DNA from: Nitrospirota bacterium
Lineage (GTDB): Bacteria > Nitrospirota > UBA9217
Length of the DNA stretch: 64,000 nucleotides
NCBI GenBank assembly: GCA_963663225.1
Contig: OY760142.1
Coordinates: 2,144,001-2,208,000, forward strand
Reading direction: 5' to 3'
Below, in pieces: positions 42,273 through 45,824 of the stretch. Both the position numbers and the translations under genes were made by a program. How positions within the stretch are numbered: the first letter of the stretch is position 1; each line of letters begins with the position of its first letter. Under the pieces are notes generated by a model that searched no databases, was not told where the DNA came from, and worked only from the letters and a program-made list of their open reading frames with translations.

Positions 42273-42434
42273 GAATCCCTGGCAACATTTCGTACAAAAT
42301 GATTATTGTCGTAAAACACTGAGGTGAACAATATTGATAGATCGGGGGTGATTCAACAAGAATAATCTGGTTACTTTAACAATTTGTTGTGAGCTGAGAT
42401 AAATTATACGCTCTTATCGAAAGGAGTGCCGTTC

Positions 42435-44207
42435 ATGAATATCCTTGTTTCCCGTAAAAACATACTGGCCACTTTGCTGGCAATTGCCGTTGCGGCCGCT
42501 TTAACAGGGACAAGCTTTGCTCACGATCAGGAATTTGGTTTTCAGAAGCCATGGAAGTTCGGCATCATGGCCGACACCCAGTGGAAAACATCTCCTGACG
42601 GCAAGAATCCAAACAATGTTGCCATCGGGGTAATCAACCATCTTAATCAGGAATTCATCAAGCATGGGGTCAAGTTCGTGATTCAGGTCGGTGACCTGAC
42701 GGAAAACGGCAATAATATGGAAATGGACACCACAGCCACCTTCAGACAGGCGCTGTACAACGCTGGCATAGGCTTTTATCCTTTGCGTGGAAACCACGAG
42801 ACGTCTGCGGCTGTTGCAGAAGAATTCAGGCGAGTTTTTCCTCAAACCCGGACCGGCATGAATAACCAGACTCCGTCAGATGCCTTCGTCACGACTGCGT
42901 ATTACGGTGCGCCGCCGGCCAATACCAACACTGCGTTTATTACCGGCTCAAACTTTACCAGCCCCCTGGACATCGATCAGAATTATGCCGGACTGAGCTA
43001 CTCCTTTGATTACAATAATGCGCTTTTTCTGCTGCTCGACGGATTCACCATCCCGAACATTGCATGCAATCTGATCGAAAATCAGCAGCCCTGGATATCG
43101 AATACTCTTGCAGCCAGAGAATCTGACGCCCACGCCTTTGTTTTCAGTCATAAAGGCATGATTACGGAAAACCACAAAGACATTCTTTTTACAGAACCCG
43201 GCAAATGCAATGGAAGCAGCACCAACAGCACTCCTGCAGCCAAGCCCGCCGAACAGAATACTTTTCTAAGCAGCCTGTTCAACAACGGAGTACGGTTGTA
43301 TATAAACGGCCACGACCACATGCACAATCGTGCGATCGTTGAAAGTCCGGACCGCACATCGGTGGTGCAGAATATTACCGCCTCTTCAAACAGCTACAAG
43401 TTCTATATACCGTTGATTCCCTCAAACGACGAAACGTATAATCTTCCTGCATTCGGATTTCGGCGAGAGACTGTGGTGGCGCAGGAACTTTTTACCGTCG
43501 GCTACTATATTGTGACCGTAGATGGGCCGCGGGTGACGGTGGATTACTATTCTTCGCCTAATGGTTGCAGCGGCGATTGCGACCAGACGAACGATGTAAT
43601 ACCCTATACATTTACCAAGAGGGAAAGCTTTGGTTACAGCCTGAACGGCAAAGATTTCTTAATTCCGCAAGGCGCTTCGTATGCTTCTGTTCGAGACCAT
43701 CATCATGGTACGAACGGTGCAATCCTTGAAGGTATGAACAACAGTACGGCAAAAGCATATGATGGACGGTCTTTGACCAAAATTGTCAGCACCGGATGGT
43801 CTCCGAAAACGCAGGGTACGAACAATGGTGCGTTTACGCTCTGGGGCATGGCAGGTAGTTTGGGAAGCGACCAGACGGACGTGTTTGCGCTTTCCTTGAG
43901 CTATGAACATGCCGATGTGGACCATAAGGATTTAAAGCGAGGTGGGTTCGGTTTGGTCACAAAAGACGCCTATGGCAACTGGACCAACGCAGTGGATAAG
44001 AATTACGGTGGTGCAAAAAAGTTTATATACGGTCCGTGGCAATCCGGCTATGAACTCGGCACGTATGGCGTGGATCCGCACACGCATACAGTTTGGGCGG
44101 TGATTAATTATAATGGTGATTTTTCATCAGGTGAATTTCACGCAGTGCATCCTCAAGATCACAAGAACGAGCAGCGGGGAGGGCGGAGCACCGATGATCA
44201 TAAGTGA
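42435..44207 (+). CDS. Secreted calcineurin-like metallophosphoesterase
   Basis: Signal peptide (..TSFA); MADTQ, QVGDL, RGNHE, FSHK, NGHDHMH. Confidence 0.88.
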   Translation: MNILVSRKNILATLLAIAVAAALTGTSFAHDQEFGFQKPWKFGIMADTQWKTSPDGKNPNNVAIGVINHLNQEFIKHGVKFVIQVGDLTENGNNMEMDTTATFRQALYNAGIGFYPLRGNHETSAAVAEEFRRVFPQTRTGMNNQTPSDAFVTTAYYGAPPANTNTAFITGSNFTSPLDIDQNYAGLSYSFDYNNALFLLLDGFTIPNIACNLIENQQPWISNTLAARESDAHAFVFSHKGMITENHKDILFTEPGKCNGSSTNSTPAAKPAEQNTFLSSLFNNGVRLYINGHDHMHNRAIVESPDRTSVVQNITASSNSYKFYIPLIPSNDETYNLPAFGFRRETVVAQELFTVGYYIVTVDGPRVTVDYYSSPNGCSGDCDQTNDVIPYTFTKRESFGYSLNGKDFLIPQGASYASVRDHHHGTNGAILEGMNNSTAKAYDGRSLTKIVSTGWSPKTQGTNNGAFTLWGMAGSLGSDQTDVFALSLSYEHADVDHKDLKRGGFGLVTKDAYGNWTNAVDKNYGGAKKFIYGPWQSGYELGTYGVDPHTHTVWAVINYNGDFSSGEFHAVHPQDHKNEQRGGRSTDDHK

Positions 44208-44351
44208 AATTTTCGGAACGGCAGTTTTTAGAACCGGCAGCTGAAGTCGTTTATGCCGGGGAGTCCGTGCCTGTTCCGCGGGCTCTCCGGCATTTTAAAT
44301 TGTATTCGACATCCTCGACCCGGTACTCCCACAGTGTGTTTAATTCTTTTT

Positions 44352-45026
44352 TTATTCAAAACCGAACAATATACTCTGGAACAACCTTGTTCCTGCCTGT
44401 ATTTGTTCCCCGACCACATAATTCCCCGGAGTGCCGTGGTTTATTTCCCGGTGTTCTTTTGTGTGTTCTTCTGACCAGAAGAAGATTGTTCTTTTTCAGA
44501 ACGCCTTAATAATGTTCTTTTCCGGGAGCGTAAAGAGGTCCAGGTCAGGCGCATAGACCACGGGTTCGCACCCTTTTCCAGCGGCTGAATAATTAAGCTC
44601 ACTGTCTATCGTCAGTTCCATCGGCTTTTTGCAGTGTGCGCATTCAGTGTGGACCGTGACCGTAAGCTGTTCATTTCGTAATCGCCCTTGCACGAAGGGC
44701 GTGGCAAACGCATCCACTGCTCAGGCCGCGTATACCTGCTCGCCGGTGCTGAAGGTCAGATGATGGGGCGTTTTCTCTATTGTTACCGGATATGCCCATG
44801 TCACCGATCCTTCAGGATTTCTGAACAGGAACGTCATGCGCTTTTCCATGTCCTCAAGAAGGAATGCGACCCGGTCGCGGGGCATATTCAGCTTTTGCGC
44901 GATAACATCGGGCGGGAGAGGCTTTCCTGTACGGGGAAGTTCTCTGACTGTAAAATGATGCACTCGCCGGTGATCGGCGGTCATAAAACGCACCGCATTT
45001 TTAAACCTCCTGATCTTGTCTTCCAT
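44352..45026 (-). CDS. merB: MerB-like organometal lyase with two selenocysteines (U102 at 44721-44723, U177 at 44496-44498), 224 aa
   Basis: Read-through gives WAYPVT..HHL..VYAA-U-AVDA..ECAHCKKPMELTI..IIKAF-U-KRTIFFWSEEH..FGFE-TAA, matching MerB YAWCALD and SFCCHVHFFAS; SECIS-like hairpin after each UGA; AAGGAG RBS. Confidence 0.85.
44466..44483 (-). promoter_or_regulatory. SECIS-like hairpin for the second UGA of the MerB-like gene
   Basis: TTCTTCT-GGTC-AGAAGAA starting 12 nt after UGA. Confidence 0.7.
44683..44701 (-). promoter_or_regulatory. SECIS-like hairpin for the first UGA of the MerB-like gene
   Basis: CGCCCTT-CGTGC-AAGGGCG starting 19 nt after UGA. Confidence 0.7.
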
Positions 45027-45068
45027 GCAGTCTCCTTTCGTAACGCGAATAAGCTATGTATACTTTTA

Positions 45069-45605
45069 TCATATTTGCCGCTCCGTCCGCGATTGCTTTC
45101 TGATGAGGATGATTTCTGCTGCTGGAATACCGAGCGACTCAAGAAAGTCCTGATGGGCTTCCGGGGCGAGCCGTTCAAATTCCGTATGCCATTTGCTTCG
45201 TGCCGTTTCATCCAGTCCGGAGTTCTGCAGCAATTGTATCCAGCGTTTTTTGTCCATGAACCCCGCCCTGGCAATTGCGCGATTGTTCTTTAAAAGAGTG
45301 ACAATAAAATGCTGCTGATTGCGCAAAGCACGGATTTCGTTGTTTAAGTCTTCAAGCCGCTTTTTAAGGAGATAAACGACGCCTTTTCCGCCATTGGTTT
45401 TTATGACCCTGTCGATGTCTTTGAGCGGCAGTCCCGCCCTGCGGTACGTGCATATTTGTTCAAGACGGGCGCAGTCTTTTTCGGTGTAGGCCCGGTAATT
45501 CGAGCTGCTTCTTCCCGAGGGAGAGAACAGTCCGAGCGAATCATAGTAAAGCAGGGTGCTGCGGGAAAGGCCGAATTTTTTCGACAATTTGCCGATGGTA
45601 TACAT
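45069..45605 (-). CDS. MerR-family transcriptional regulator
   Basis: YTIGKLSKKFGLSRSTLLYYDSLGL..NYRAY HTH; coiled coil; C-terminal WH.EFE..APE.HQ.FL.SLG domain; AGGAGG RBS. Confidence 0.92.
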   Translation of the reverse strand: MYTIGKLSKKFGLSRSTLLYYDSLGLFSPSGRSSSNYRAYTEKDCARLEQICTYRRAGLPLKDIDRVIKTNGGKGVVYLLKKRLEDLNNEIRALRNQQHFIVTLLKNNRAIARAGFMDKKRWIQLLQNSGLDETARSKWHTEFERLAPEAHQDFLESLGIPAAEIILIRKQSRTERQI

Positions 45606-45629
45606 GATCACCTCCTGCATCAGCAGTGT

Positions 45630-45660
45630 AGCATAAACTATAAAGCAATAGACAGGTCAA
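45630..45660 (-). promoter_or_regulatory. MerR-type promoter with 19-bp spacer
   Basis: TTGACC-19 nt-TATGCT with CTAT..ATAG dyad in the spacer. Confidence 0.7.
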
Positions 45661-45824
45661 GGTGTTTTTTTAATTTCAGGTCTTTCCGGGTTAAACGGTA
45701 CGCAGGGGCGGGGAGATTGAGAAAAGCTGTTTTCTTGTTGCATCAGTAAATCAAGCCGAAATTCCGTTGTGCGATGTTTTAAGGTATAATCATAAACGGG
45801 AGTTTTATGAACAGGGATATCTTC

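Follow-up and report, generated by a model that had tools for sequence, protein, structure and literature searches.

The window analyzed here is a 64,000-nucleotide stretch of a Nitrospirota genome (positions 2,144,001 to 2,208,000 of contig OY760142.1), and on its minus strand, between positions 44352 and 45026, a reading frame resembling the organomercury lyase MerB is interrupted twice by TGA. This locus raises the question of whether it holds the remnants of a broken gene or a single gene in which both TGAs specify selenocysteine (Sec), and, if the latter, what its product might do with Sec at the two positions where MerB has its metal-binding cysteines. The analyses presented below indicate that it is almost certainly a real gene for a selenoprotein with two Sec residues, and they point, with less assurance, to a predicted carbon-metal lyase of MerB fold, an overall explanation that we regard as reasonably probable. 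The gene and its two recoded codons are arranged as follows:

44352-45026, minus strand: selenoprotein gene, 224 codons plus TAA, with a product of predicted MerB fold carrying Sec102, Asp105 and Sec177
44721-44723, minus strand: UGA codon 102, read as Sec, on the column of MerB Cys96 (column 1)
44496-44498, minus strand: UGA codon 177, read as Sec, on the column of MerB Cys159 (column 2)

Translation from the ATG at 45024-45026 to the TAA at 44352-44354 yields one frame of 224 residues in which the TGAs at codons 102 and 177 are the sole interruptions, and it reproduces the two contexts, VYAA-U-AVD and IIKAF-U-KRTIFFWS, that had been given for the UGAs in the initial annotation of this stretch. 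The open reading frames (ORFs) obtained with translation table 11 are only fragments, at 44721-45026 (101 residues) and 44496-44717 (73 residues), with the third segment unlisted, just as that annotation had reported in describing one gene split by two TGAs rather than separate fragments, a description borne out by the 224-codon frame. The likely source read run reproduces the stretch of the window with zero differences, and 44348-45700 is also covered by an independent 13.9 kb contig from a 2018 metagenome, which shows 55 differences; of those listed, none falls at either TGA (41 lie outside those listed). Sequencing errors at the TGAs, against which the initial annotation had cautioned, are excluded by the presence of both codons in 81 independent genomes.

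These genomes were obtained by scanning a collection holding one genome per species, in which 350 stretches were retrieved and 343, mostly labeled Desulfobacterota and Nitrospirota, encode relatives of the protein; the best 80 were fetched and, together with the window, make up 81 loci, of which 77 (76 fetched and the window) were resolved codon by codon with a script and four were read by eye. TGA occupies both columns in 81/81 loci, at 49-96% identity. The same holds in a 401-genome sample of the window's own phylum, where 7/7 close matches have exactly two TGAs, and in a 401-genome sample of the Desulfobacterota, where 26/26 matches have both TGAs down to 42% identity (8 of these 26 carriers being already among the 80 fetched loci). 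Residues past each UGA are conserved as well: the alignment has 38 invariant columns, many of them beyond residue 177, and the invariant residues, which follow both UGAs, include F182, S185-H188, R193, G201, Y203, Q217 and F221.

Public protein sets bear the expected mark of this arrangement. A protein database search returned 446 matches, and the 120 listed are mainly fragments of 125-127 residues that end just before column 1, as had been anticipated for annotation pipelines. In an exhaustive profile search with 918 matches, the 150 listed stop for the most part at profile position 96, while among the same 150 a smaller group ends at position 171 and some fragments span positions 99-171. Ten JGI proteins that appear "full-length" have Trp at both Sec columns. 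Trp at both columns was recorded for the public proteins P0002-P0011, P0029, P0042, P0045 and P0124, and we assume from these sequences that it reflects genes predicted on short contigs under a code in which TGA means Trp.

If both UGAs are decoded as Sec, each would be expected to carry its own selenocysteine insertion sequence (SECIS). A 7-bp hairpin had been proposed after each UGA, with loops at 26 and 19 nt, and folding places both where they had been described, each with a G in its apical loop and with covariation in its support:

44683-44701, minus strand: SECIS-like hairpin 1, with a 7-bp stem formed by nucleotides 23-29 and 35-41 counted from the U of the first UGA, and the loop CGUGC 26 nt after the UGA
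44466-44483, minus strand: SECIS-like hairpin 2, with a 7-bp stem formed by nucleotides 16-22 and 27-33 counted from the U of the second UGA, and the loop GGUC 19 nt after the UGA

Hairpin 1 is made of the codons for T-P-F-V-Q-G-R (residues 109-115) and hairpin 2 of those for F-F-W-S-E-E (residues 182-187), the latter being extended in most homologues by a 4-bp lower helix that is mostly missing from the window copy. Across the 77 codon-resolved sequences, codon entropy is close to zero only at residues 110-114 and 182-187, with CCC in 76/77 and TTC, GTG and GGG each in 77/77 for hairpin 1, and with TTC in 77/77 and 76/76 and GAA in 76/77 and 72/76 for hairpin 2. Invariant residues elsewhere in the protein keep 0.9-2.0 bits of codon entropy, and P80, T82, G95, P155, P160 and G201 keep 1.5-2.0 bits.

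Pairing is likewise preserved. The stem positions are paired in 95.4% of cases for hairpin 1 (69 distinct rows, with the outermost pair broken in 18) and in 97.9% for hairpin 2 (74 distinct rows, counting the 4-bp lower helix), and pairing drops to 33-65% when the partners are slid by 1-3 columns. Compensatory changes are found in both: five G-C to U-A double changes at pair 24-40 of hairpin 1, and eleven U-A to C-G double changes at the loop-closing pair of hairpin 2, where Trp UGG becomes Arg CGG together with a change of Ser UCA to UCG, plus one more double change at pair 19-30. The covariation score of either hairpin was reached in 0/500 shuffles, a measure that can be inflated by relatedness. 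As a negative control, ten Cys-type paralogues share the FFxSxxH motif, yet they present mixed Phe and Ser codons, variable Glu positions and no hairpin.

Two observations weigh against the hairpins. Folding of the 60 nt after each UGA as a single sequence gives z-scores of -0.26 and -0.22, no better than shuffles, and it is for this reason that we relied on comparative evidence; furthermore, part of the pairing follows from protein conservation, since the hairpins consist of the codons of conserved peptides. In Rfam searches no family reached its gathering score in the window, with only chance-level matches in 44300-45100. Nonetheless, given the frozen codons, the covariation and the absence of such constraint in the Cys-type paralogues, we consider both hairpins to be under RNA-level selection tied to the UGAs, and each UGA is predicted to have its own SECIS hairpin inside the coding sequence.

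Two further observations concern the same segments. Read depth in metagenome contigs spikes 4- to 14-fold exactly over the SECIS stretches 44441-44487 and 44676-44722, and short pieces of the contigs of other organisms match these nucleotide-invariant segments. Short contigs from two runs labeled RNA-Seq, marked "probably DNA", overlap the selenoprotein gene or the adjacent regulator gene and were not used as evidence.

The genome, a single contig of 3.26 Mb that is 99% complete, has all the Sec machinery that was sought. It encodes SelA (520.6 bits) next to SelB, whose wing domain scores 80.2 bits, a SelD (372.2 bits; G000:C1:522565-523479, minus strand) and a tRNA-Sec with anticodon TCA. The selD gene contains one in-frame TGA, for which reason SelD is probably itself a selenoprotein. 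Directly downstream of selD lies a tRNA-Sec-like element of 144 nt (G000:C1:522308-522451, minus strand) that matches the full Rfam tRNA-Sec model with 48.9 bits against a gathering score of 47 and receives no ARAGORN call; about 55 nt are inserted in its variable-arm region, and its anticodon loop, CUGCAAA, has a GCA (Cys) anticodon. Earlier descriptions exist of tRNA-Sec-like tRNAs that carry a Cys anticodon. Taken together, these data predict, from sequence, that both in-frame UGAs are decoded as Sec.

With Sec read as Cys, the protein matches the Pfam MerB family (PF03243) with 51.5 bits against a cut-off of 27, residues 83-215 aligning to profile positions 3-124 of 126, and a search of the genome with this profile also recovers the gene, with two TGAs inside, and no other MerB-family gene. 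Among solved structures, phmmer finds only MerB chains at E <= 0.001, and its alignment to chains 3f2g and 1s6l sets U102 on C96, D105 on D99 and U177 on C159. An AlphaFold2 model built on 32 full-length homologues has a predicted local distance difference test (pLDDT) score of 89.6 and a predicted template modeling (pTM) score of 0.87; compared with the PDB using Foldseek, its 11 best matches belong without exception to MerB or MerB2 (best E 4.2e-13, template modeling scores 0.76/0.81), and the first match beyond them has an E-value of 0.43. The protein is thus predicted by modeling to have the full MerB fold, and the geometry of its Sec/Asp/Sec site is probably equivalent to that of the MerB site. 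Both the assignment to a MerB-like family and the replacement of Cys96 and Cys159 by Sec, with the Asp kept, had been put forward in the initial annotation, and the Pfam match together with the predicted fold, and the phmmer alignment, respectively, bear them out. Asp105 is invariant in 77/77 homologous sequences.

Relatives with Cys in place of Sec are also found, non-Cys residues at these columns having been named in the initial annotation as grounds for doubt. In four aligned paralogues of the same bacterial family, Cys fills both columns, so that homologues with TGA (81/81 loci) or with Cys at both columns are each represented. P0013, P0014 and six representatives of clusters at 50% identity carry Cys at column 1 and terminate at column 2, where the stop is assumed, from their sequences, to be TGA. 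Further out, representatives combine Ser at column 1 with Cys at column 2. In a tree of the U/U, W/W, C/U, S/C, non-Cys and C/C forms, in which 19/56 inner branches are open and long branches are flagged, the other forms are set among U/U lineages on an unresolved backbone, and for this reason no direction of change between Sec and Cys was drawn from it.

Beyond the three catalytic columns, the homologues conserve a C-x-x-C motif (window positions 44628-44642, codons 129-133), with C129 in 76/77 and C132 in 67/77, as well as Cys153 in 62/77. Together, C129/C132 and Cys153 could form an additional site for metal binding or redox chemistry. In the Cys-type paralogues the same region has CPEC and further Cys residues.

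The immediate surroundings of the gene comprise the following elements:

45032-45036, minus strand: Shine-Dalgarno-like AGGAG, read directly from the sequence, 5 nt upstream of the ATG
45069-45620, minus strand: MerR-family transcription regulator of 183 residues (PF13411, 57.3 bits; PF00376, 45.1 bits), ending 42 nt upstream of the selenoprotein start
44253-44293, no strand assigned: terminator-like 17-bp GC-rich hairpin between the stop of the selenoprotein gene and the convergent gene at 42426-44207 (plus strand), from a consensus scan only, the number of such hairpins being no greater than in shuffles

The window protein and its two closest relatives (L028 and L029) are without about 25 N-terminal residues present in nearly all other homologues, and an in-frame stop upstream of the start codon at 45024-45026 precludes a longer ORF in the window. 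In the homologues compared (L030-L107) this additional segment is hydrophobic and begins M-K-x-R-I-M-L-G.

The regulator at 45069-45620 is likely to control the selenoprotein gene or to be a co-transcribed partner of it. Across the 81 loci the only recurrent neighbors are an upstream regulator on the same strand, of MerR type at 22/81 (the window among them) or of MarR type at 19/81, and a 4HBT thioesterase at 10/81. Neither regulator has an NCBIfam equivalog. No SAO genes and no transporter or chaperone partner are conserved beside the gene at these loci.

With the gene and its fold in place, a function may be proposed by analogy with MerB, in which Cys96 and Cys159 bind the metal and Asp99 donates a proton. 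In the proposed mechanism, the SelA, SelB, SelD and tRNA-Sec system of the genome would serve both UGAs; the two selenolates of the product would bind the soft metal or metalloid center of an organometal compound; and Asp105 would protonate the leaving carbon, so that the carbon-metal bond is cleaved. The metal product would then be passed to cellular thiols or sulfide rather than to MerA. Methylmercury or other organomercurials would be the lead candidate substrates, with further organometal(loid)s as possible alternatives. Save for an adjacent MerR- or MarR-family regulator the gene is solitary, and its product would therefore probably be an inducible enzyme for detoxification or turnover, outside any mer operon. 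Indirect support for such a function comes from the invariance of Asp105 and from the stress-responsive character of the regulator families that adjoin the gene at the loci counted above, and a selone-based MerB mimic and selenoamino acids are described, in the portion of the review available, as cleaving C-Hg bonds chemically (PMC10114901).

By this analogy, carbon-metal lyase chemistry is slightly favored for the window protein, and several observations weigh against it or against mercury as the metal. The NCBIfam MerB equivalogs NF009710 and NF033555 score the protein far below their cut-offs (51.9 against 193 and 39.9 against 200 bits), and relatives at 23-42% identity have Ser, Glu or Gly at column 1, some of them without the Asp, which indicates that the wider superfamily is not uniformly catalytic. 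No merA, merT or merP is linked to the gene at any of the 81 loci, and the window's own genome has no MerA above the cut-off (best 367.9 against 454.45 bits). Neither regulator cluster is present at 40/81 loci. Where the MerR-type regulator is present it falls below all NCBIfam cut-offs (37 against 150.85 bits for Hg-MerR) and has one conserved Cys (18/22) and two invariant His in a conserved C-terminal domain, with no Cys-rich metal site, and the MarR-type regulators have no conserved Cys. Finally, Hg(II) held by two selenolates is very hard to release, which argues against fast mercury turnover. Given that MerA is missing, that the regulators are not thiophilic and that Hg-selenolate bonds should be tight, we do not commit to one physiological substrate, and mercury as the physiological metal is plausible and yet somewhat doubtful.

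Membership in MerB proper was rejected: the protein is below the curated cut-offs, both Cys columns hold UGA, there is no linkage to merA, merT or merP, and the genome has no MerA. An NCBIfam scan gave no model that recognizes the window protein.

Several of the same observations could instead be read as signs of a redox selenoenzyme. Its Sec102 and Sec177 would alternate between the selenolate state and a diselenide bond, or a selenenylsulfide with the conserved Cys129/Cys132, and its substrate, whether an electrophile, a peroxide or a disulfide, would be reduced or detoxified, with control by stress-sensing regulators of MerR or MarR type. MerR and MarR families often sense oxidants or electrophiles, and those found here are without thiophilic metal sites; the conserved C-x-x-C (C129 and C132), the lack of mer context at the 81 loci and the absence of MerA from the genome all fit this reading, as does the statement, in the available part of a 2026 review, that selenoproteins are critical for antioxidant defense (PMC13188914). 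It is nonetheless unlikely, for the protein matches the MerB fold over its full length and nothing else, the MerB proton-donor Asp is invariant (77/77), and no thioredoxin-like or peroxidase family was detected in the Pfam and NCBIfam scans. We know of no oxidoreductase of MerB fold.

A non-catalytic role is also conceivable, the protein being then a sequestering protein, chaperone or sensor that binds Hg, Cd, Cu, Ag, As or a similar soft metal or metalloid. A two-selenolate site binds soft metals very tightly, and with MerA absent there is no downstream partner for removal of a product. Furthermore, MerB binds other metals at its Hg site, and a single residue change turns it into a copper binder, according to the portion of the preprint available (bioRxiv 10.1101/2022.07.06.499078). 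We consider this quite improbable: the catalytic Asp is invariant, a two-Sec protein would presumably be costly for stoichiometric scavenging, and no transporter or chaperone partner is conserved nearby.

That the locus is not a functional selenoprotein gene at all, its TGAs being true stops within a pseudogene, small ORFs or sequencing errors, is a reading for which the 125-127-residue fragments shown by gene callers and public protein sets and the non-significant single-sequence hairpin energies may be cited, and it has a negligible probability in view of the TGAs at the same two columns in 81/81, 7/7 and 26/26 genomes across several phyla, the strong protein conservation past both, the frozen synonymous sites and compensatory changes in both hairpins, and the independent 13.9 kb metagenome contig, with no TGA difference among those listed.

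The carbon-metal lyase reading gains some interest from the organisms concerned. The window's own genome has hgcA with 394.8 bits against a curated cut-off of 275 (G000:C1:975295-976275, minus strand), well enough above it for the organism to be regarded as a putative mercury methylator. Among carrier genomes, 40 of those contributing the 80 fetched loci were searched for hgcA, and 23/40 have it above the cut-off, with two more having it in pieces. In the Desulfobacterota sample hgcA is present in 15/26 carriers versus 107/375 non-carriers (odds ratio 3.4, Fisher p 0.003, uncorrected), an enrichment that ignores shared ancestry. hgcA is close to universal in the family to which the window's genome belongs, where it shows no enrichment among carriers (4/7) over non-carriers (48/57), the three hgcA-negative carriers being 83-86% complete. 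The missing enrichment in this family, like the uncorrected ancestry in the Desulfobacterota, counts against the proposed function. The association with hgcA is moderate in strength and confounded with phylogeny; since no co-occurrence figure is corrected for ancestry, we treat hgcA as a weak functional hint at most, and its association with the gene fits a shared anaerobic niche.

These results bear on annotation, on selenium biology and on mercury cycling. The gene is almost certainly real yet routinely mis-annotated, and its carriers are widespread among anaerobes, often with hgcA in the same genome: the one-genome-per-species collection holds 343 stretches that encode relatives, and 26/401 Desulfobacterota genomes carry the gene. 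For selenium biology, both metal ligands of a catalytic site would be recoded to Sec, each with its own SECIS, in the PFVQG and FFWSEE codons; the presence of FFxSxxH in the Cys-type paralogues suggests that the second SECIS arose from a motif already present in the protein. Demethylation pathways in anoxic settings are described as unresolved in the available part of a 2021 review (PMC10114901), and a Sec-dependent MerB homologue in lineages often carrying hgcA makes that question directly testable. That the Sec/Asp/Sec family is the missing mer-independent organomercury lyase of anoxic environments is an improbable proposition on present evidence; were it true, methylators and neighboring anaerobes (Desulfobacterota, Nitrospirota) would cleave methylmercury or organometal(loid)s at very low concentrations without MerA, and every merB-based gene survey would have missed the family, because two UGAs split the gene. 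A 2021 survey of MerB homologues describes Cys96, Asp99 and Cys159 as strictly conserved, with selenocysteine never mentioned in the portion available (PMC8261052). As judged from its sequences, the family is well supported as one of selenoproteins and, less firmly, proposed to be one of lyases.

The literature searched held no description of a two-Sec MerB-like protein, and an earlier listing in survey papers or supplements is possible. In the available parts of reviews from 2022 and 2026 (the latter PMC13188914), SaoL is the only MerB-like selenoprotein, and the initial annotation had correctly cited it as a known Sec-containing relative, as the accessible portion of a preprint confirms; there, SaoL is reported in 45 of 52 SAO loci, mostly in Firmicutes (Haft and Gwadz, bioRxiv 10.1101/2022.07.06.499078). 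SaoL (NF040728) and the window protein are alike in being PF03243 members and selenoproteins of anaerobes that are truncated at UGA in databases, in having Sec on the Cys159 column and Asp on the Asp99 column, and in possibly having a physiological substrate other than mercury. They differ in that SaoL, as presented in the part of the preprint available, has one Sec within a Cys-Sec dipeptide and Cys at the Cys96 column, whereas the window family has Sec in both positions, with Phe (F176) preceding Sec177 in 77/77 and no CU dipeptide. By the same source, SaoL is the marker of the SAO locus, whose nine genes include ABC transporter and efflux genes; none of these is conserved beside the window family. 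With the SaoL model giving the window protein 42.2 bits against a cut-off of 140, no CU dipeptide and no SAO locus, identity with SaoL was rejected, and the window family is very probably distinct from it.

A second comparison is offered by the window's own bacterial family, in which a separate and apparently unnamed family of Cys/Cys MerB-like paralogues (L018-L027) has open frames of 250-256 residues; the two members scanned score 84-87 bits with the SaoL model (cut-off 140) and 68-69 bits with a MerB model. Like the window protein, these paralogues are MerB-like, and they have C-x-x-D and F-C motifs at the two columns that it fills with Sec, followed by FFxSxxH, with a Cys codon at column 2 in 10/10 and at column 1 in the six where the motif was found. 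Although they occur in the same taxonomic family as the window genome, their identity to the window protein is only 26-30%, and they are closer to the SaoL model than it is, yet below its cut-off. Unlike the window family, they have no in-frame stops, no hairpin and no frozen codons.

MerB itself (PDB 3f0o, 3f2f and 5c0t; MerB2, 5c17) shares with the window protein the full-length fold and the three catalytic columns, as well as a winged-helix-like region at the N terminus and an FF motif that follows the second catalytic residue. The two proteins are about 21% identical, and both Cys ligands of MerB are Sec in the window protein; the linkage of MerB to merA, merT and merP in mer operons was not found for the window family. 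In contrast with MerB, the window family has ATPFVQGRL and FFWSEEH motifs that would double as the SECIS elements of its two UGA codons.

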